IMG/VR virus record: IMGVR_UViG_2663762648_000009
DNA: 18,052 bases
Reading direction: 5' to 3' (one strand)
Origin: a virus
Lineage: Duplodnaviria; Heunggongvirae; Uroviricota; Caudoviricetes
Shown here one piece after another: positions 67 through 15,946 of the stretch; the stretch's first letter is position 1, and the number at the start of each line of letters is the position of its first letter. The position numbers and the translations under genes are program-made. The notes below the pieces were generated by a model that did not search any database, had not been told where the DNA came from, and saw only the letters and a list, made by a program, of their open reading frames with translations.

Positions 67-6022
<5,956 letters not shown>

Positions 6023-7402: not shown

Positions 7403-7492
7403 GGAGAGATGCCGGAGCGGCTGAACGGACCGGTCTCGAAAACCGGAGTGGGGGCAACTCCACCGGGGGTTCAAATCCCCCTCTCTCCGCCA
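7403..7492 (+). tRNA. serU: tRNA-Ser (anticodon CGA), long variable arm
   Basis: GGAGAGATGCCGGAGCGGCTGAACGGACCGGTCTCGAAAACCGGAGTGGGGGCAACTCCACCGGGGGTTCAAATCCCCCTCTCTCCGCCA: 90 nt, acceptor stem GGAGAGA/TCTCTCC, anticodon loop CTCGAAA, T-arm GGGGG TTCAAAT CCCCC, encoded CCA. Confidence 0.95.
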
Positions 7493-7544: not shown

Positions 7545-8570
7545 TTACTTGGAATATTTTCTTGGAATATTTTCAGGTAACGGGACATCAAGTGTTGGTG
7601 AAACTTTAACCTTCCTGTCATAGATTAGCACTTGCCCTTCGGTTTTGTGACCAGAGAAAAGTTGCTTATCCCGGCTGCTTCCTTCATAGTCTGAAATTCC
7701 TTTCGCCTTCAGATCATGAAAGGTGAAGTCGGTTAAAATACCTGAAATTTTGCCTGCGCGATTTCTTGCTTCTACCCACATTTCGTTAAAGCCTTTGTAC
7801 ATATATCGGTTGCCGTATTGATTGCTGATTACATAGGCGGATGTTGGTAACTGTTTTGCTTTTTCGATCGCCGCCTGTAATCGTGGACTCCATGCTTTTA
7901 TCTGTTTTTTCCCTGTTTTCCCTTGCTGGATAAAGATCCCGTCGTTTCCAATCTGCTCCCATTTCAGCGATAACACATCGGAAACCCTCGCTGCACACAG
8001 ATAGGCAATTTCCATTGCGATAAAAACAGGAAGAGGTGCAACGCTTAATACTGCCTGGTATTCTTTGTCGGTTACATATCGTTCGCGGTTTTTGGCCTTG
8101 AATTTACTTACACCTGCACATGGGTTAGCCTTCACGTACCCTCGCTCATACCCCCAACTGTAAACACGGGACATACTGCTTTTTTCATGGTTGGCTTGCG
8201 TTTTACTTTGCTCCCCTCTTTTGTCCATGTATCGACGGATGTGTTCTGGTTTTATGGAATCCGCTGGTACCTTACTGAATACGGCAAGCAACTTTTTTTG
8301 ATGTTGCAGATAATCTTTTTGTGTTCTTGGACTAAGGTCACTGTAATAGGCGCTGGCGAGGAATTTTTCCCACAAGCGACCGAATGTTATTGCACGATCG
8401 CGATTATCTACAGTTTCCTCATACTTTTTCCATAAAGCAGCTAAACCATCCTTGATGGCGGTTAGTGTGACAGATTCTCTGGATGTTGGTTTCCATACAT
8501 AACTATATTTATTTGGGTATACATTTGGAGGTAATTTTTCGTGTTCAGGATTTTTCCTTCGTCTTCCCAT
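7545..8570 (-). CDS. int: Prophage tyrosine integrase (lambda Int family)
   Basis: 341 aa with tyrosine-recombinase signature segments: AARVSDVLSLKW (Arg), HDLKAKGISD (His), GHKTEGQVLIYDRK (Tyr). ATG at 8568..8570 overlaps the stop of the upstream small gene (ATGA). Gene ends 53 nt from the tRNA-Ser 3' end, the typical prophage attachment arrangement. Confidence 0.9.
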   Translation of the reverse strand: MGRRRKNPEHEKLPPNVYPNKYSYVWKPTSRESVTLTAIKDGLAALWKKYEETVDNRDRAITFGRLWEKFLASAYYSDLSPRTQKDYLQHQKKLLAVFSKVPADSIKPEHIRRYMDKRGEQSKTQANHEKSSMSRVYSWGYERGYVKANPCAGVSKFKAKNRERYVTDKEYQAVLSVAPLPVFIAMEIAYLCAARVSDVLSLKWEQIGNDGIFIQQGKTGKKQIKAWSPRLQAAIEKAKQLPTSAYVISNQYGNRYMYKGFNEMWVEARNRAGKISGILTDFTFHDLKAKGISDYEGSSRDKQLFSGHKTEGQVLIYDRKVKVSPTLDVPLPENIPRKYSK

Positions 8571-8773
8571 CAGATCGCACCAAAATTCGGCTCTACCTCG
8601 CGTGGTGGTAAAGTTTTATTGCAGGTAAATAGATCCCGGCTGACAATCGGTTTGCCACTACGATTGGTATAGAACGGAAGCCCGTTTTCCATTAACCATT
8701 TTCGCTGGTGGCTTGCATATTTGCAGCCCGTTAATATTAGCAATTCATCTTCGGTTAAAAATAAGCTGCTCAT
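8570..8773 (-). CDS. Small int-adjacent protein, DUF4224-like, probable excisionase/recombination directionality factor
   Basis: 67-aa ORF (MSSLFLTEDELLILTGCKYASHQRKWLMENGLPF...) directly upstream of int with 4-nt start/stop overlap. Sequence pattern resembles the small proteins commonly found next to prophage integrases. Function inferred from position. Confidence 0.6.
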   Translation of the reverse strand: MSSLFLTEDELLILTGCKYASHQRKWLMENGLPFYTNRSGKPIVSRDLFTCNKTLPPREVEPNFGAI

Positions 8774-8831: not shown

Positions 8832-11303
8832 TTAAAAATCAGCCTGACTCGGGATCAGTTTTTGCCAGATAACTGAAACGTATTTTGCCTGGTAACGGGC
8901 GTCATCAAGTGCATTATGGCGCTCACCTTCGAATGGAATAGCCGTTCTGGCATCGAAGTCTATGGCTTTCCCCAGCTCAACGATTGTGCGTACATCGCGA
9001 TCGTTGTAGTAACGCCACGGGCAGGGGATCCCCTGCCGTTCGTATGAACGGCGCAAAATCGTGTTGTCGAAGTTGGCTCCATTTCCCCAGACCTGAACAA
9101 AAAATTCACCGGAGTTTTCGTCGATAAATTCCCGCAATTGTAACAGTGCATCATCTAACGGGATTTCATCGGTCATAATGGCAGATTGCGCTTCGCGTGA
9201 TTGCTTAAGCCACCATTTAATGGTGTCCCGATCAATGACTCCGCCAGCAGTTTCCAGATCGATAGTCTTACTAAATTCCGGTCCCATATCTCCGGTTTGC
9301 GGATCGAAAAATATTGCACCTATTGAGATGATCGGGGCATCAGGATTTTTTCCCATGGTTTCAAGGTCGATCATTAGATGGTCACACGTCCTGCTGGTGG
9401 ATGTGATTTCTTGATGACCGTTCACCTTAATTGAGTGATCTGCCGTCTCGCCAGTTTCATTATCGCTATCGTGATGCTGATTGCCGCCAGTGTTCTCCTT
9501 GTGTGGATGTTCAGCGCCTTCCATTTCCTCCGGATCATCTTCCTGAACTTCAGGCTGATACTCTTTATCGAATGTTTCCTGGTATGTTGCGTCGCCCATT
9601 ACCGCGCCACAATCAGGGCAGTTGCCACCACCGCTTTGACCGCAGGCGGTGCAGACTTTTTCCGGTTCCTGTTGCGCTACTGGCTCAGGTTGTTTCGTTT
9701 CTGGCTCGTTTTGTAACGCATTTGGGCTGTTTTGTTCCGCTTTCTGGCCGTTCTGTTCCGTTTCTTGTTGGTTCTGATTCACTGAATCGCGGGTTTCAAT
9801 CCCCTTCACCCATTTCGGATCATTCGGGTCGCTAATCCCTGCAACAAATTCACCACGTGATACAGCAAGCAACTTATTGGCGTCAGGCTGGCTGATATTG
9901 GCTGCCTGCATAATTTTGTTTACTTCGTCAGCGGTAACTTTTACCGGCTCTGGTTGTGCGATCGTGTCAGATGCACCAGTATTTTGTTGTGAACCTGAGT
10001 ATGTACTGTTTTTGCGGGCGAAATATTCTTCTTTCGTGATTTCAGTAGCCCCGGCAGCCAGCGCCTTATCCAGACCAGAAAGTTTGTTTGCGCGACCGTA
10101 TTTTTCGCCATCCTTGTCGGTGAAGAGGAAGTAGAACGGCCCTTCACGCTCTACAGATGGTTCGACTTCCACTTTGCATTCGGTTTTTTCGTTGTCCGGA
10201 ATTGCCGTTTCCACTGCATCAGTTTCTGGTACTGGCGACGAGAGAGTATCAGTTGCGCTCTGATTTCTTCCTTCATCTTCAAACACGCCCTTTGTAGTCA
10301 GGTATTCAGTAATGTATTTGTTCAGTGCCACAGGATCTTTGTGAATGTCGATCGGACGTTCACGGACAAGGCCAAAAATAGTCTGGCGGTCGTAGCGAAG
10401 GGCATCAGGCTGTTTGCGCATTGATGCCGAGATACGCTTCCAGTCTTCGCGGCCGTTGTCGATAACTTCATTTTTTGCCCAGCGATGGATGCTGCCGTCA
10501 ATGTTTCCGGCATCCACATCACCAGGCCAGAGAGCGTAGGCCAGTTCGTCATCCAGTGTTTTCCATGTCTGCTTGTATTCGCGATGAATGGCAGCAATGA
10601 CCGGGCTGATTTTTCCTGTTGAATTTTCAGTGTACTGTTGATTGGCTCTGGCGCGGGCGAGATCAACAACAGACGTGTATTTTCCGGTTTCCTTGCGTTC
10701 ACCTTCGCGACGTTTTTTCCAGATGCGCATCTCTGCCTGAATTTCGGGCCATTTAGCACCAGGAATACATTTATGCTTAACCCACCCAATGGCGTGCAAC
10801 TTAAGCTCCGGATACATGGCGTTAACTTCTGGCATTTTCATCAACGCTTCAACGATATGTCCGTCGAATGTTGCCATGTCTTCCTGCAACAATTCCTGTG
10901 CGCTAATAACCATATCAACGGTGATGTTTTCACATGTGTCGAACTTAACCATGACAGCGTTCTGTACTTCAGGGGCCAGCTTGTCAAAAGTGACGTTCAT
11001 CGGATCGGATTCAGTCTCAACCGGGACAAAAGAAGCAGACTCCTCATCCCAGCGGTTTTCCTGCATATATTCAGCATCCCATGAATCGAGGGCAGGGCGG
11101 GGTATGCCAGGTTTATCCTCGCAGACAATAAATTTATAAGCGCAGTCCTGAGCAGCCGGATAATGTTCCAGGAATTGCCAGTGAAATTTTGCGCGGGCGC
11201 GACATTCATCACCGGCTTCAATGGTAGTGGCTACAGCGACTGCACCTTCTTCCTTTATTGCCTGTTCGTCCGGAATGGCGGCGCAAATAAAGACTTTACT
11301 CAT
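8832..11303 (-). CDS. Prophage exonuclease: C-terminal DEDDh (DnaQ-like) 3'-5' exonuclease domain, central Cys4 zinc ribbon, N-terminal region of unknown function
   Basis: 823-aa ORF. C-terminus carries Exo I/II/III-like motifs (MIDLETMG, WGNGANFDNTIL, HNALDDARYQ); centre has CTACGQSGGGNCPDCG. Such proteins are often auto-annotated exodeoxyribonuclease VIII, but the motifs seen are DnaQ-like rather than RecE-like PD-(D/E)XK. ATG 11301..11303. Confidence 0.85.
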   Translation of the reverse strand: MSKVFICAAIPDEQAIKEEGAVAVATTIEAGDECRARAKFHWQFLEHYPAAQDCAYKFIVCEDKPGIPRPALDSWDAEYMQENRWDEESASFVPVETESDPMNVTFDKLAPEVQNAVMVKFDTCENITVDMVISAQELLQEDMATFDGHIVEALMKMPEVNAMYPELKLHAIGWVKHKCIPGAKWPEIQAEMRIWKKRREGERKETGKYTSVVDLARARANQQYTENSTGKISPVIAAIHREYKQTWKTLDDELAYALWPGDVDAGNIDGSIHRWAKNEVIDNGREDWKRISASMRKQPDALRYDRQTIFGLVRERPIDIHKDPVALNKYITEYLTTKGVFEDEGRNQSATDTLSSPVPETDAVETAIPDNEKTECKVEVEPSVEREGPFYFLFTDKDGEKYGRANKLSGLDKALAAGATEITKEEYFARKNSTYSGSQQNTGASDTIAQPEPVKVTADEVNKIMQAANISQPDANKLLAVSRGEFVAGISDPNDPKWVKGIETRDSVNQNQQETEQNGQKAEQNSPNALQNEPETKQPEPVAQQEPEKVCTACGQSGGGNCPDCGAVMGDATYQETFDKEYQPEVQEDDPEEMEGAEHPHKENTGGNQHHDSDNETGETADHSIKVNGHQEITSTSRTCDHLMIDLETMGKNPDAPIISIGAIFFDPQTGDMGPEFSKTIDLETAGGVIDRDTIKWWLKQSREAQSAIMTDEIPLDDALLQLREFIDENSGEFFVQVWGNGANFDNTILRRSYERQGIPCPWRYYNDRDVRTIVELGKAIDFDARTAIPFEGERHNALDDARYQAKYVSVIWQKLIPSQADF

Positions 11304-11398
11304 TTTGTTTTAACCTCATTACAGATTTCAGGGTGAACGAATCCCTGCCATTGCTGGCATTTTTAATCCGTTGGTATGGCGTTAATATGGCTGGCGGG

Positions 11399-11587
11399 TT
11401 ATCCAGCCGGTATTTCGTTATTCAGGTTCAGCGATACTTTTTTTAACGGGAGGCATTCACCGGGGATTTTTTGTTCGTCCCTTACCTGAATGCAGGATGA
11501 CTTACTGTCATAAATTCCGGTAATCACATTTTGTGGCTCACCCGTTATAAGAAAAACGGTCATCACCAGTGCAAATGCTGAAGTCAC
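11399..11587 (-). CDS. ydfD: YdfD-like small protein with N-terminal hydrophobic/signal segment (Qin prophage lysis-type protein family)
   Basis: 62 aa (MTSAFALVMTVFLITGEPQNV...EQKIPGECLPLKKV...EIPAG). GTG start overlaps the dicB stop (GTGA). Position immediately after dicB matches the Qin dicBF operon order. Name from recalled similarity. Confidence 0.6.
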   Translation of the reverse strand: MTSAFALVMTVFLITGEPQNVITGIYDSKSSCIQVRDEQKIPGECLPLKKVSLNLNNEIPAG

Positions 11588-11772
11588 TGCTGTTCTCCGA
11601 TAATACCAAGTTCAAGAAGGGCAATTCTGGAAAGTATGGAATTATCATTGAGAAGATAAGGTTCATATTTTCTCATCTTAATGGCATCTTCCGTAAACTC
11701 CCGGTTACTGAGCAGAACACCAATATCAAAACAACCTTCAGACGTATTAACGTTTGGTAATAACGTTTCCAT
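11584..11772 (-). CDS. dicB: DicB-like cell division inhibitor
   Basis: 62 aa from ATG 11770..11772 (METLLPNVNTSEGCFDIGVLLSNREFTEDAI...), GAGGA 7 nt upstream. N-terminal half matches recalled K-12 DicB (METLLPNVNTSEGCF...), C-terminal half diverged. Lies ~170 nt downstream of dicF. Confidence 0.75.
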   Translation of the reverse strand: METLLPNVNTSEGCFDIGVLLSNREFTEDAIKMRKYEPYLLNDNSILSRIALLELGIIGEQQ

Positions 11773-11946
11773 TATCGCGTCCTCAACAATGAATTTTGTG
11801 ATGCGGTGCCTGGTGCCTCCAGGTGACGTTAACCAGTTAACAATTAACGCCGGATACAGAGAATCCACCCATAACACTGTTTTTGGTTTTAACTGTTCCG
11901 CGTGCGCTCAGCCGCATTCACCACATCACAAAATTCACTTTAAAAA

Positions 11947-11999
11947 GGGCGGCAGAGCAGTCACGGAGTAAAACTGATACCGCCAAACGTCACCAGAAA
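11947..11999 (-). ncRNA. dicF: DicF small RNA (copy 1)
   Basis: Minus strand reads TTTCTGGTGACGTTTGGCGGTATCAGTTTTACTCCGTGACTGCTCTGCCGCCC followed by TTTTT, matching the 53-nt DicF sRNA as recalled. Operon context (ydfABC upstream, dicB downstream) agrees. Confidence 0.85.
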
Positions 12000-12131
12000 A
12001 TTGATAACAGAGGGCGTTGCAGCGGAGTTGTCACTTAAGCGTATGGTCAACCTGACAACCCGGTGTCCTCAACGGAGGTGATGCTGCCAACTTACTGATT
12101 TAGTGTATGATGGTGTTTTTGAGGTGCTCCA

Positions 12132-12407
12132 GTGGCTTCTGTTTCTATCAGCTGTCCCTCCTGTTCAGCTACTGACGGGGTGGTGCGTAACGGCAAAAGC
12201 ACTGCCGGACATCAGCGCTATCTCTGCTCTCACTGCCGTAAAACATGGCAACTGCAGTTCACTTACACCGCTTCTCAACCCGGTACGCACCAGAAAATCA
12301 TTGATATGGCCATGAATGGCGTTGGATGCCGGGCAACTGCACGCATTATGGGCGTTGGCCTCAACACGATTTTACGTCACTTAAAAAACTCAGGCCGCAG
12401 TCGGTAA
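12132..12407 (+). CDS. insA: IS1 InsA (transposition inhibitor / N-terminal part of InsAB' transposase)
   Basis: 91 aa [37 protein letters not shown]..., zinc-finger CxxC...CxxC, canonical IS1 InsA. Confidence 0.9.
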
Positions 12408-12829
12408 CCTCGCGCATACAGCCGGGCAGTGACGTCATCGTCTGCGCGGAAATGGACGAACAGTGGGGCTATGTCGGGGCTAAATCGCGCCAGCGCTGGC
12501 TGTTTTACGCGTATGACAGTCTCCGGAAGACGGTTGTTGCGCACGTATTCGGTGAACGCACTATGGCGACGCTGGGGCGTCTTATGAGCCTGCTGTCACC
12601 CTTTGACGTGGTGATATGGATGACGGATGGCTGGCCGCTGTATGAATCCCGCCTGAAGGGAAAGCTGCACGTAATCAGCAAGCGATATACGCAGCGAATT
12701 GAGCGGCATAACCTGAATCTGAGGCAGCACCTGGCACGGCTGGGACGGAAGTCGCTGTCGTTCTCAAAATCGGTGGAGCTGCATGACAAAGTCATCGGGC
12801 ATTATCTGAACATAAAACACTATCAATAA
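12326..12829 (+). CDS. insB: IS1 InsB reading frame (expressed as InsAB' fusion by -1 frameshift)
   Basis: 167-aa ORF in the -1 frame relative to insA, overlapping it; canonical IS1 organisation. Confidence 0.85.
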
Positions 12830-13314
12830 GTTGGAGTCATTACCAACCGGAAAGTCTCCATGGTACAGACCCGTGCGCCATCAGGAACGGTTTCGGTGAA
12901 TCTGATGTTGCCGCGTTCGTCGAAGTGAACAACCAGGGTGCGGCCATCGCCTGGAATTATTTTGTCAGTGGGTGGGGTGTTATTCTGGCGCAGTTCGGCC
13001 TCCATGCGATCGAACTCAGCAATGTAGGCTTCTTTAAATGCAGCGGCTTTTTTGCCAGTGAATCCCATCACCAGGAAAACGAAGCCGTTTTTGGTGATTT
13101 GGTACATCGGGCGTTTTTCGCCTTTGGCGTCAGTGTAGGTGACGTCCTCAAAATTGAGGGCGTTAAATTCAGGTGAGCATTCAGTATTTGCGATGGCACG
13201 TAACACATTGTCGTGACGCTTGCCAAAGAACTCTGCGATCGCAATAGACGTAGTGACAGCGCGACCATTTTCGATGGTTACGTCAGGGTGAGAAAGGGCA
13301 GGGATAGTAGCCAT
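12823..13314 (-). pseudogene. Rha-family phage regulatory protein (antirepressor-like), 3' end truncated by IS1
   Basis: ORF from ATG 13312..13314 (MATIPALSHPDVTIENGRAVTTSIAIAEFFGKRHDNVLRAIANTE...), GAGGA 7 nt upstream; N-terminal region resembles the Rha domain. The reading frame runs into the IS1 right end at 12844/12845 and its last codons (VMTPTY-stop) are IS1 sequence, so the native C-terminus is missing. Confidence 0.7.
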
Positions 13315-13483
13315 GATGGCATCCTCGAGTGATAAGTTAATTAACTCACCACCGAGGTTTTCCACGACCATAAGGGTGGTGAGACGTACAGGGGTGGAAA
13401 TACCGGTCACTCGAGAACCCGGCCAGTCTTGCGACTGCCCTGCACATCCCACCATAATTTGAATGGAGCTGTGCATTACGCAT

Positions 13484-13508
13484 AAAAAAACCGCTTCAGC
13501 GCGGCTAT
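13484..13508 (-). terminator. Possible weak intrinsic terminator
   Basis: On the minus strand a short GC stem (CCGC/GCGG, plus 13491..13504) is followed by seven T (plus 13484..13490). Stem is only 4-5 bp. Confidence 0.35.
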
Positions 13509-13512
13509 GCGC

Positions 13513-13611
13513 TCAAGTAACGTTCGGGTTTCCACGCCCGGCACCCGTTTTATAAGGTGCAGGTGCACTATAATTCCACCCGTTCTGGTTTTCAATAGCT
13601 ACATTCAACAT
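13513..13611 (-). CDS. Hypothetical 32-aa ORF downstream of dicF copy 2
   Basis: ATG 13609..13611 with AGGAAAGAG upstream (MLNVAIENQNGWNYSAPAPYKTGAGRGNPNVT), followed by the T-tract hairpin. Occupies the place dicB has in the other copies. Very short, no recognisable family. Confidence 0.3.
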   Translation of the reverse strand: MLNVAIENQNGWNYSAPAPYKTGAGRGNPNVT

Positions 13612-13794
13612 TTTCTCTTTCCTTTCATCACCGAAGTGAACTTTGTTGATGCGGTGCCTGGTGCCTCCAGGTGACGTTAACCAGTTAACAATTAACGCCG
13701 GATACAGAGAATCCACCCATAACACTGTTTTTGGTTTTAACTGTTCCGCGTGCGCTCAGCCGCATTCACCACATCACAAAATTCACTTTAAAAA

Positions 13795-13847
13795 GGGCGG
13801 CAGAGCAGTCACGGAGTAAAACTGATACCGCCAAACGTCACCAGAAA
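13795..13847 (-). ncRNA. dicF: DicF small RNA (copy 2, in a diverged context)
   Basis: Same 53-nt DicF sequence. Flanks are identical to copy 1 from about 13647 to 13925, then continue to about 13970 with three substitutions relative to copy 3. Downstream (minus) it is followed by the small ORF and the Rha-like gene instead of dicB. Confidence 0.8.
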
Positions 13848-14040
13848 ATTGATAACAGAGGGCGTTGCAGCGGAGTTGTCACTTAAGCGTATGGTCAACC
13901 TGACAACCCGGTGTCCTCAACGGGGAAGGAATAACTCCGCCATACTTACCGCCGCGTCATTTCGCGTTGTGTGCCTGCTTTTAACCACGTCAGGCGAGGT
14001 GGTATCCTTCTTATCCCGAATAACCAAGAAGGAAATCTAT

Positions 14041-14086
14041 ATGACTAAAGAAGAATTTGTCTCTTATATTTTTGATAAAACGGTTG
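14041..14086 (+). pseudogene. 5' fragment of an unknown gene interrupted by IS1
   Basis: AAGGAA then 6 nt then ATG at 14041; 15 codons (MTKEEFVSYIFDKTV) before the IS1 left end at 14087. No continuation found in the window. Confidence 0.35.
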
Positions 14087-14141
14087 GGTGATGCTGCCAA
14101 CTTACTGATTTAGTGTATGATGGTGTTTTTGAGGTGCTCCA

Positions 14142-14417
14142 GTGGCTTCTGTTTCTATCAGCTGTCCCTCCTGTTCAGCTACTGACGGGGTGGTGCGTAA
14201 CGGCAAAAGCACTGCCGGACATCAGCGCTATCTCTGCTCTCACTGCCGTAAAACATGGCAACTGCAGTTCACTTACACCGCTTCTCAACCCGGTACGCAC
14301 CAGAAAATCATTGATATGGCCATGAATGGCGTTGGATGCCGGGCAACTGCACGCATTATGGGCGTTGGCCTCAACACGATTTTACGTCACTTAAAAAACT
14401 CAGGCCGCAGTCGGTAA
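14142..14417 (+). CDS. insA: IS1 InsA (second copy)
   Basis: Identical 91-aa ORF to 12132..12407. Confidence 0.9.
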
Positions 14418-14839
14418 CCTCGCGCATACAGCCGGGCAGTGACGTCATCGTCTGCGCGGAAATGGACGAACAGTGGGGCTATGTCGGGGCTAAATCGCGC
14501 CAGCGCTGGCTGTTTTACGCGTATGACAGTCTCCGGAAGACGGTTGTTGCGCACGTATTCGGTGAACGCACTATGGCGACGCTGGGGCGTCTTATGAGCC
14601 TGCTGTCACCCTTTGACGTGGTGATATGGATGACGGATGGCTGGCCGCTGTATGAATCCCGCCTGAAGGGAAAGCTGCACGTAATCAGCAAGCGATATAC
14701 GCAGCGAATTGAGCGGCATAACCTGAATCTGAGGCAGCACCTGGCACGGCTGGGACGGAAGTCGCTGTCGTTCTCAAAATCGGTGGAGCTGCATGACAAA
14801 GTCATCGGGCATTATCTGAACATAAAACACTATCAATAA
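14336..14839 (+). CDS. insB: IS1 InsB reading frame (second copy)
   Basis: Identical 167-aa ORF to 12326..12829; ends 6 bp before the truncation point. Confidence 0.85.
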
Positions 14840-14845
14840 GTTGGA

Positions 14846-14912
14846 CGACTGCACCTTCTTCCTTTATTGCCTGTTCGTCCGGAATGGCGGCGCAAATAAA
14901 GACTTTACTCAT
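14846..14912 (-). pseudogene. Orphan 5' fragment of the exonuclease gene (first 22 codons plus upstream region) fused to the IS1 end
   Basis: Sequence equals 11237..11303 (MSKVFICAAIPDEQAIKEEGAV); the reading frame then runs into antisense IS1. Confidence 0.6.
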
Positions 14913-15007
14913 TTTGTTTTAACCTCATTACAGATTTCAGGGTGAACGAATCCCTGCCATTGCTGGCATTTTTAATCCGTTGGTATGGCGTTAATATGGC
15001 TGGCGGG

Positions 15008-15196
15008 TTATCCAGCCGGTATTTCGTTATTCAGGTTCAGCGATACTTTTTTTAACGGGAGGCATTCACCGGGGATTTTTTGTTCGTCCCTTACCTGAAT
15101 GCAGGATGACTTACTGTCATAAATTCCGGTAATCACATTTTGTGGCTCACCCGTTATAAGAAAAACGGTCATCACCAGTGCAAATGCTGAAGTCAC
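15008..15196 (-). CDS. ydfD: YdfD-like small protein (second copy)
   Basis: Identical to 11399..11587. Confidence 0.6.
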   Translation of the reverse strand: MTSAFALVMTVFLITGEPQNVITGIYDSKSSCIQVRDEQKIPGECLPLKKVSLNLNNEIPAG

Positions 15197-15381
15197 TGCT
15201 GTTCTCCGATAATACCAAGTTCAAGAAGGGCAATTCTGGAAAGTATGGAATTATCATTGAGAAGATAAGGTTCATATTTTCTCATCTTAATGGCATCTTC
15301 CGTAAACTCCCGGTTACTGAGCAGAACACCAATATCAAAACAACCTTCAGACGTATTAACGTTTGGTAATAACGTTTCCAT
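15193..15381 (-). CDS. dicB: DicB-like cell division inhibitor (second copy)
   Basis: Identical to 11584..11772. Confidence 0.75.
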   Translation of the reverse strand: METLLPNVNTSEGCFDIGVLLSNREFTEDAIKMRKYEPYLLNDNSILSRIALLELGIIGEQQ

Positions 15382-15555
15382 TATCGCGTCCTCAACAATG
15401 AATTTTGTGATGCGGTGCCTGGTGCCTCCAGGTGACGTTAACCAGTTAACAATTAACGCCGGATACAGAGAATCCACCCATAACACTGTTTTTGGTTTTA
15501 ACTGTTCCGCGTGCGCTCAGCCGCATTCACCACATCACAAAATTCACTTTAAAAA

Positions 15556-15608
15556 GGGCGGCAGAGCAGTCACGGAGTAAAACTGATACCGCCAAACGTC
15601 ACCAGAAA
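15556..15608 (-). ncRNA. dicF: DicF small RNA (copy 3, in the intact operon context)
   Basis: Same 53-nt sequence. This copy keeps the uninterrupted leader back to ydfC (15609..15946), including an upstream stem GTTGTCA ... TGACAAC. Confidence 0.85.
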
Positions 15609-15946
15609 ATTGATAACAGAGGGCGTTGCAGCGGAGTTGTCACTTAAGCGTATGGTCAACCTGACAACCCGGTGTCCTCAACGGAGGAAGGAATAACCCC
15701 GCCATACTTACCGCCGCGCCATTTCGCGGAGTGCCACAACCGGAAGCGCACGGTCGAACTAAATTTAACGACACCGTACAGAGAGACCAATTTCGCCGTG
15801 CGCTTTCGCTTTATGCCCTGACTTTTCAGGGACATATCCTTTCAGTAAACTGTCAGTGCCGGATGTTCACCCGTGTCCGGCGCACGCACTCCACCTGACC
15901 CGTGGAGAACTCCTTAATTACCAACCTTAGCTTCGTTGGTTAGCTA

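Follow-up and report, generated by a model that had tools for sequence, protein, structure and literature searches.

We analyzed an 18,052-nucleotide stretch of DNA from a Caudoviricetes virus (IMG/VR record IMGVR_UViG_2663762648_000009; the whole stretch is called the window below). In it, a fragment enclosed by two IS1 elements carries, on the minus strand, DicF, a promoter, an IsrK/seqA-like RNA, a C4/CI-type antisense RNA and an open reading frame (ORF) of the Rha family that runs into IS1 (Table 1). The C4 RNA and the IsrK-like RNA were absent from the anatomy given in an earlier note, made from the sequence alone, which had placed a 32-aa ORF and a T-tract hairpin between dicF and the Rha gene. 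Both are present, though not as a separate small gene and a terminator: they belong to a promoter and an IsrK-like RNA with its own terminator. The −10 hexamer of this promoter ends 7 nt upstream of the IsrK 5′ end.

Residues 21–105 of the Rha-family product, here called rha′, matched the Pfam family Phage_pRha (PF09669) with an E value of 1.8 × 10−32 (112.2 bits against a cut-off of 29.9), covering profile positions 1–90 of 91 and bearing out the Rha-family identity suggested earlier. The product, previously given as 164 aa, consists of 163 aa and a stop codon. Its residues 1–157 are native (12845–13314). Native sequence ends at 12845, a Leu codon straddles the IS1 junction, and the final VMTPTY with the TAA stop (12823–12843) lies entirely within the right end of IS1 copy 1, just as the earlier note had it.

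The proposed truncation by IS1 was confirmed by full-length E. coli relatives, which are 185 aa long when counted from the ATG equivalent to 13314 and run 28 residues further than the native part of rha′. Against a 284-aa E. coli annotation, rha′ aligns with residues 100–258 at 93% identity. The window protein is without the last 28 residues of the 185-aa form, in whose place stand 6 IS1-coded residues, and the complete C-terminal region typical of the 185-aa Rha subfamily is not present. The lost tail (..FYLEKQGWTLVNRxAIKNMTVEQLL..) is the best-conserved stretch of the Rha C-terminal half, with 20 positions conserved in at least 90% of 31 aligned homologues. AlphaFold2 gave a confident model of a full-length relative for the Rha domain only, and we therefore argue the effect of the truncation from conservation.

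Table 1. Features of the IS1-bounded fragment and its borders, listed in the direction of the minus strand
Feature	Position in window	Strand	Evidence or remark
IS1 copy 2	14087..14845	+	last 9 bp of right inverted repeat missing
Resident-like patch including DicF	13637..13966	-	98.5-99.3% identical to resident prophage dicF region
DicF	13795..13846	-	Rfam RF00039, 76.7 bits against gathering score 48
32-codon ORF (5′ end of eta-like long ORF)	13513..13611	-	cut by TGA at 13513-13515
Sigma-70-like promoter TTGAAA-17 nt-TATAGT	13567..13595	-	10/12 consensus matches; kept in relatives
IsrK/seqA-like RNA	13484..13560	-	Rfam RF01394, 61.4 bits against gathering score 50
a1 site in IsrK	13529-13536	-	duplex energies
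b1 site in IsrK	13512-13521	-	duplex energies
IsrK intrinsic terminator (G+C hairpin and T-run)	13484-13506	-	terminator scan
45-codon ORF overlapping C4	13346..13483	-	counterpart of Gifsy-1 orf45
C4/CI-type antisense RNA	13372..13459	-	Rfam RF01695, 76.7 bits against gathering score 45, full model 1-87
C4 b′ hairpin loop	13407-13418	-	
C4 a′ segment	13394-13400	-	single-stranded
a2 target CGTGGAAAA	13358..13366	-	complementary to C4 a′
b2 target TCACTCGAGGAT	13321-13332	-	pairs with C4 b′ loop
rha Shine-Dalgarno GAGGA, ATG and b2 site	13312..13332	-	
Chimeric rha′ ORF	12823..13314	-	163 aa + stop; ATG 13312-13314, TAA 12823-12825
IS1 copy 1	12077..12844	+	complete, 768 bp, both terminal inverted repeats

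The two IS1 elements are mutually 100% identical. Copy 1 has no 9-bp target-site duplication (flanks CCTCAACGGA and AACCGGAAA), which indicates a recombinant IS1. Copy 2, situated 240 nt upstream of dicF, stands between the fragment and its upstream operon and abuts directly on the second copy of an 842-bp duplication. The missing target duplication of copy 1, together with the loss of 9 bp from the end of copy 2 and its junction with the duplicate, suggests that the block of IS1, fragment and IS1′ arose by IS1-mediated and illegitimate recombination, not by simple transposition. The whole block is flanked by the perfect 842-bp direct duplication (11237–12078 and 14846–15687), in which the resident serU prophage is represented by dicF, dicB, DUF1482 and the 5′ end of its exonuclease gene. 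On the plus strand, an ORF at 14042–14086 opens with MTKEEFVSYIFDKTV and has 15 codons before IS1 copy 2 breaks it off; judged by its position, it may correspond to a hypothetical protein on the plus strand (5279–5479) upstream of dicF in the relative L002.

Independent GenBank entries from Shigella sonnei contain the identical chimeric protein, and a 217-aa reading of it was found on 592 contigs, nearly all of ~1.3 kb with IS1 at both ends; the exact IS1/Rha junction had no match in species-representative genomes. These occurrences bear on whether the junction is real at all. Given that the two 842-bp copies, like the two IS1 copies, are 100% identical, that the end of IS1 copy 2 is atypical and truncated, and that an N occurs in one IMG/VR contig carrying the fragment twice, the repeats might have been mis-joined during assembly. 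We regard such an artefact as very improbable, because both IS1 junctions recur in hundreds of independent short-read assemblies, on the ~1.3-kb contigs that reach ~25–30 nt into IS1, and because the chimeric protein has independent database entries from S. sonnei. The contig with two fragment copies (L060, L061) was left out of the reconstruction of the rearrangement on account of its N.

The Rha cassette between dicF and dicB

Relatives covering at least 80% of the fragment (12845–14086) were present in 314 of 5,426 complete E. coli genomes at ~84–92% identity. The annotated order in two of them (L001, L002) is (dicF), Rha family protein, dicB, DUF1482, exonuclease, xis and int, and the full order in intact relatives is dicF, isrK, C4, rha, dicB and DUF1482. 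Among 80 IMG/VR loci encoding the Rha protein, dicB lies directly downstream of rha in 45 and starts 568 nt after the rha ATG in 39, while canonical dicF lies no more than 700 nt upstream in 32. A search of other genomes for dicF followed by an Rha gene, as the earlier note had advised, was thus positive in both E. coli and viral loci. In 19 of the 80 viral loci, and in L001 (E. coli VL7S7; ~4950–5020), dicB stands downstream with no canonical DicF upstream; the dicF position of these cassettes is taken by a diverged sequence for which no DicF match reached the Rfam gathering score.

The comparison of cassette-less copies in the window with L001 and L002 revealed a clean 875-bp indel. The cassette, comprising the promoter, isrK, C4 and rha, is bounded by a 9-nt direct repeat, CAAAATTCA, and the cassette-less form reads GCACCGCATCA-CAAAATTCATTGTTGAGGACGCGATAATG, the latter part belonging to dicB; AAAATTCATTGTTGA represents the last four codons and stop of rha. 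We had considered the ...EDAIM that the starts of rha and dicB have in common in one frame as a shared junction. This candidate was rejected by comparison with intact relatives, since the cassette-less dicB leader consists of the last 15 nt of rha and the dicB ribosome-binding site. As rha is followed by dicB in intact relatives, Rha was inserted ahead of dicB and did not replace it; the earlier claim that Rha stands in place of dicB is therefore not supported. In the window fragment, the IS1 junction has removed dicB as well as the 3′ end of rha. No description of a C4/isrK/Rha cassette between dicF and dicB emerged when the text of the available papers was searched.

Also incorrect was the view that the dicF copy of the fragment is diverged. 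The window contains three DicF copies with an identical 52-nt core, each scoring 76.7 bits, whereas the patch around it is only ~83% similar, and carries a diverged dicF-like sequence, in the majority of other assemblies that share this IS1-bounded fragment. The canonical DicF patch in the window looks like the product of gene conversion from resident copies. Its length was ~190–330 bp, and the diverged dicF-like sequence in the comparison of L005–L010 is without the 5′ UUCUGGUGAC seed. One further assembly (L003) has the same fragment in a different prophage (ParE/PaaA2, DUF1391), where the 9-bp target duplication CAACCGTTT on either side of the upstream IS1 marks a simple insertion. This placement supports the origin of the fragment in another dicF-bearing phage, in agreement with the earlier note.

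Several features of the surroundings may be added. The resident prophage adjoins tRNA-Ser(CGA), beside mtfA and yeeJ (window 7403–7492 and 7545–8570), and its close relatives (E. coli O103 and Shiga toxin-producing E. coli from pig and pork) have plain dicF–dicB without the cassette. A sub-threshold Rfam match to the Salmonella small RNA STnc100 lies at 13642–13783 on the minus strand (37.6 bits against 47, E = 1.3 × 10−6); this stretch sits between dicF and the cassette or dicB, with an equivalent in each dicF–dicB copy. The Rfam search of the window yielded no match to isrJ.

Loop–target covariation and the nested long frame

The proposed targets of the C4 RNA could be compared across relatives. 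We aligned 30 distinct leaders and calculated all-against-all duplex energies. The C4 b′ loop and a′ segment were variable, with matching changes at b2 and a2 upstream of the rha ATG and at b1 and a1 in IsrK. The window type combines b′ CUCGAGUGA with b2 UCACUCGAG, and another type combines b′ CUUGGUUGA with b2 UCAACCAAG and b1 UCAAUCAAG. For b′–b2, the cognate duplex was the best in 10/10 rows (mean −15.4 kcal/mol for cognate versus −7.7 kcal/mol for non-cognate pairs), and for b′–b1 in 9/10 rows (−12.8 versus −6.7 kcal/mol). The a′ segment behaved alike, the cognate duplex being best in 6/6 rows both with a2 (−10.0 versus −5.9 kcal/mol) and with a1 (−11.2 versus −6.8 kcal/mol), which brings the overall count to 31/32 rows. 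Among the leaders were 10 distinct b′ loop sequences, representing ~8 separable specificities, and 6 distinct a′ sequences, representing 5.

The b2 site overlaps the Shine-Dalgarno sequence GAGGA of rha, an arrangement that, as far as sequence can tell, is the defining logic of P1/P7 C4 and P4 CI. Together with the covariation, this overlap identifies 13314 as a genuine start codon. The 45-codon ORF over C4 was intact in only 16 of 42 unique leaders of relatives, and we rejected it as a conserved coupling ORF of the E. coli cassette family on this count. In three Rha homologues from IMG/VR, the usual 5′ leader differed: L027 has an unrelated upstream region in its place, and L054 and L074 have another promoter region (TTGACG..TATATT). 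These differing leaders imply that the Rha gene and the RNA leader can recombine independently.

In relatives of the window fragment, the rha gene is the 3′ part of a longer frame of 282–284 aa, which starts upstream of the internal promoter at an ATG with its own Shine-Dalgarno sequence, at the position of 13611, and continues in frame with rha. The 97–99 codons upstream of the rha ATG were open in the rha frame in 36 of the 42 unique leaders, and two further lineages had 1-nt frameshifts; the other two frames contained 4–13 stops each. The 36 leaders together had 32 distinct stop-codon sites (27 variant-specific), none of which fell in the rha frame ((2/3)^32, or ~2 × 10−6). Leader lengths of 297, 294 or 291 nt differed by multiples of 3, and the indels are likewise multiples of 3, including one compensated −4/+1 pair.

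Most database homologues were likewise 281–284 aa long and combined Phage_ASH with Phage_pRha. The Phage_ASH match had an E value of 1 × 10−10 on the 217-aa frame of the window and 5 × 10−14 on the 99-aa extension of a relative, and the P4 eta ORF (8168–8812 in L093) matched the same family (PF10554) at 4.5 × 10−23. In BLASTP, a long-form homologue (P0040) matched the P4 Eta ORF at 3 × 10−13, with an alignment that crosses the junction of long and short genes: ...EAAIMATTLTPSHPEF at the kil start against ...EDAIMATIPALSHP at the rha start. In annotation pipelines, the 282–284-aa frame is called a 'Rha family' or 'Ash family' protein and nothing more, and the RNA genes go unannotated. Within the P4 region examined (L093, 7888–8812), the epsilon derepression protein matches PF25738 and not Phage_ASH PF10554, which one paper used as an epsilon marker.

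The long frame of the window has TGA at codon 33, where the closest intact relatives (L001, L013 and L014) have CGA, and this change accounts for the 32-aa ORF. The window locus thus appears to be a broken copy of a nested gene of the P4 eta/kil type, with the chimeric rha′ in the position of kil, the short nested gene.

It could be argued that the upstream 99 codons are never translated, the frame being open by chance in RNA sequences, with the 185-aa ORF as the real gene, a meaningless 32-aa ORF and a TGA that is neutral in IsrK. The T of the TGA does preserve b1–b′ pairing as a G–U wobble, Gifsy-1 has in-frame stops upstream of anrP, and 7 of the 120 homologues listed are annotated as 184–185 aa. 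We nevertheless consider this unlikely. Chance would not readily explain why the stop sites, mostly private to single variants, all avoid one frame when the others are riddled with stops, or why indels preserve it even by compensation. Moreover, the region is homologous to P4 Eta, whose translation prevents termination experimentally, according to the summary of Forti et al. 1999 given in PMC10111431.

State and proposed working of the cassette

Based on the domain identity, junctions, RNA family matches, loop–target covariation, frame conservation and homology to P4 Eta, each demonstrated in this analysis, we propose that 12845–13636 (minus strand) is the decayed, IS1-bounded remnant of an 875-bp RNA-gated Rha cassette of the P4/Gifsy-1 type, a reading to which we assign a probability of roughly 0.8. 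In an intact cassette, a constitutive internal promoter would produce a short IsrK/seqA-like RNA ending at its own terminator, and read-through transcripts would carry the C4/CI-like RNA. The a′ and b′ segments of C4 would pair with a2 and b2 of the leader, covering the rha Shine-Dalgarno sequence and leaving rha untranslated; they would also be able to pair with a1 and b1 in IsrK. The long frame would be translatable only from transcripts of the upstream operon that carry dicF, like P4 eta relative to kil. By analogy with P4, neither termination nor RNA repression would hold these transcripts back, allowing expression of Rha and of dicB downstream. To judge by position and family, the Rha protein is most likely a Bro-network effector, either of the antirepressor type or a regulatory one that binds DNA.

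Three lesions mark the window copy: the CGA-to-TGA nonsense change at codon 33 of the long frame, the replacement by IS1 of the last 28 conserved Rha residues with 6 foreign ones, and the presence of IS1 on both sides, which cuts the fragment off from the upstream operon and from dicB, itself absent from the fragment. The promoter, IsrK, C4, a2/b2, Shine-Dalgarno sequence and ATG are identical to those of intact E. coli relatives. Judging from these sequences, the protein-coding part is most likely a pseudogene fixed in a Shigella sonnei lineage. The promoter and the two RNA genes appear undamaged, and the RNAs may have remained active. Of the two fates that the earlier note had left open for the Rha gene, a dead gene or a shortened chimeric regulator, the evidence favors the former, although only 15% of the protein is missing.

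The second fate can be put as follows: selection in Shigella maintains the 163-aa chimera as a shortened but working regulator, whose Rha winged helix binds its target while the altered tail changes or removes a partner interaction, making it, for instance, dominant-negative or constitutive. In line with this idea, the Rha domain (residues 21–105), Shine-Dalgarno sequence, ATG, promoter and both RNAs are intact, and the identical allele occurs on the 592 contigs without further decay. S. sonnei is, however, of recent clonal descent, from which such identity is expected, so that it is not evidence of selection. The loss of the best-conserved part of the C-terminal half, with its 20 positions conserved at 90% or more, the independent nonsense mutation in the long frame, and the separation from operon and dicB by IS1 on both sides all speak against a functional chimera, which we hold to be improbable.

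Several points count against the decayed, RNA-gated cassette as we read it. The conservation of the long frame is seen in relatives, the window copy being interrupted by TGA. The truncation removes 15% of the protein and leaves the N-terminal Rha domain, Shine-Dalgarno sequence, ATG, promoter and RNAs intact, and the truncated Rha may retain residual activity. The AlphaFold2 model of the full-length relative is of low confidence for the C-terminal 70 residues, with a predicted local distance difference test score (pLDDT) below 50 at 134–185. Rha has no homology to Gifsy-1 AnrP, or to P4 Kil past the first dozen or so residues, and the Rfam c4-a1b1 model fell below threshold in the window (24.8 against 46.7, E = 4.8 × 10−4). 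Finally, we infer all expression and regulatory steps, as well as the function of Rha.

More tentatively, and with doubts that outweigh our confidence, the intact cassette could be an undescribed regulatory layer of lambdoid prophages of the Rac/Qin type: an RNA immunity switch in the manner of P4, lying between dicF and dicB and built with a long and a short Rha gene, one nested in the other. From the internal promoter, Rha and, by polarity, the cell-division inhibitor DicB would stay silent; their expression would follow once the early operon is switched on and ribosomes read the long frame past the terminator. The b- and a-types would then provide many non-cross-reacting immunity specificities among co-resident prophages, and the S. 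sonnei remnant, whose promoter, IsrK and C4 are intact, could act in trans as an immunity RNA against incoming phages of the same specificity. If this is true, at least 8 b-types and 5 a-types define the mutually non-cross-reacting specificities.

The truncation itself is routine decay mediated by insertion sequences in an IS1-rich Shigella genome. Of wider relevance is that a region labelled as an Rha family regulator of 282–284 aa can be re-read as two RNA genes inside a P4 eta/kil-type nested gene, and that hundreds of E. coli genomes carry the cassette between dicF and dicB as a discrete 875-bp indel. The rich three-way covariation offers ready specificity variants with which C4-type RNA immunity could be tested in lambdoid prophages. 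Studies of dicF and dicB expression in pathogenic E. coli and Shigella are also concerned, as an RNA-gated gene may sit between the two.

Relation to P4, Gifsy-1 and other C4-type systems

A close parallel is the immunity region of the satellite phage P4, which comprises PLE, seqA, the cI RNA and seqC, with eta and kil as nested genes. In P4 (L093), the isrK match (8615–8692) and the C4 match (8420–8507) both lie inside the eta ORF, and the order is the same as in the cassette: an internal promoter, seqA matching the isrK model, CI matching the C4 model, and a short gene controlled by the RNA. Both also have a long ORF that begins ahead of the promoter and reads in frame across the two RNAs, the N-terminal part of the cassette's long frame being homologous to Eta, and an AIMAT..SHP motif is common to the kil and rha starts. 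The two differ in that the short gene of P4 encodes the 65-aa Kil and that of the cassette a 185-aa Rha-domain protein; the gap between IsrK and C4 is ~107 nt in P4 and 24 nt in the cassette; and P4 is a satellite, whereas the cassette resides in the early operon of a lambdoid prophage, between dicF and dicB. The IsrK terminator of the cassette is intrinsic, unlike the P4 site timm, at which termination is reportedly Rho-dependent. Kil has been described as the truncated product of the short transcript, and full-length Eta as translated only from the upstream promoter (PMC10111431).

The isrK-orf45-anrP-isrJ locus of Gifsy-1, whose isrK/anrP mechanism was described by Hershko-Shalev et al. 2016 (PMC4825925), has isrK and C4 (STnc1160) ahead of a Bro-network gene, with order and spacing as in the cassette; in the window, a 45-codon ORF overlies C4. 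It differs in having no long in-frame ORF, with stops in frame upstream of anrP; in its orf45, which is not conserved in the E. coli cassette family; and in its position downstream of Q and not in an early-left operon. Homology of the window protein to AnrP was rejected: BLASTP gave an E value of 0.05 over 35 residues, and AnrP belongs to ORF6N, the window protein to Phage_pRha.

Through its Rfam family, the cassette can also be likened to the immI region of P1 and P7 (c4-icd-ant), in which a′ and b′ of the C4 family pair with a2 and b2 at the ribosome-binding site and with a1 and b1 upstream. The C4 specificity types of P1 and P7 are reported to arise by co-variation (Citron and Schuster 1990). 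The target of C4 in P1 is the Shine-Dalgarno sequence of icd, and the effectors are Ant1/2; in the cassette, C4 would target the Shine-Dalgarno sequence of the effector gene itself, and the effector is a small Rha protein.

With the Qin/Rac-type dicF–dicB operon of E. coli K-12-like prophages, the window shares the identical DicF core; the flank downstream of dicF, dicB and the ydfD-like DUF1482 are also present in the resident prophage. The cassette adds 875 bp between dicF and dicB, and the window fragment has lost dicB to IS1. By description, the cassette further resembles the Bro zones of phage-inducible chromosomal islands (PICIs) and helper-embedded PICIs, where C4 and isrK hits occur in or near Rha, ORF6N and Bro-N genes, including hits within the Bro-network genes themselves (PMC10111431), and the APSE phages, where C4 and isrK lie beside Bro and Rha genes (bioRxiv 10.1101/2020.03.17.996009); PICIs and APSE, likened by description, differ in the mobile element and its neighboring genes. 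The design is therefore a known one, that of P4 and Gifsy-1, and it is the Rha effector and the dicF–dicB context that distinguish the element in the window.

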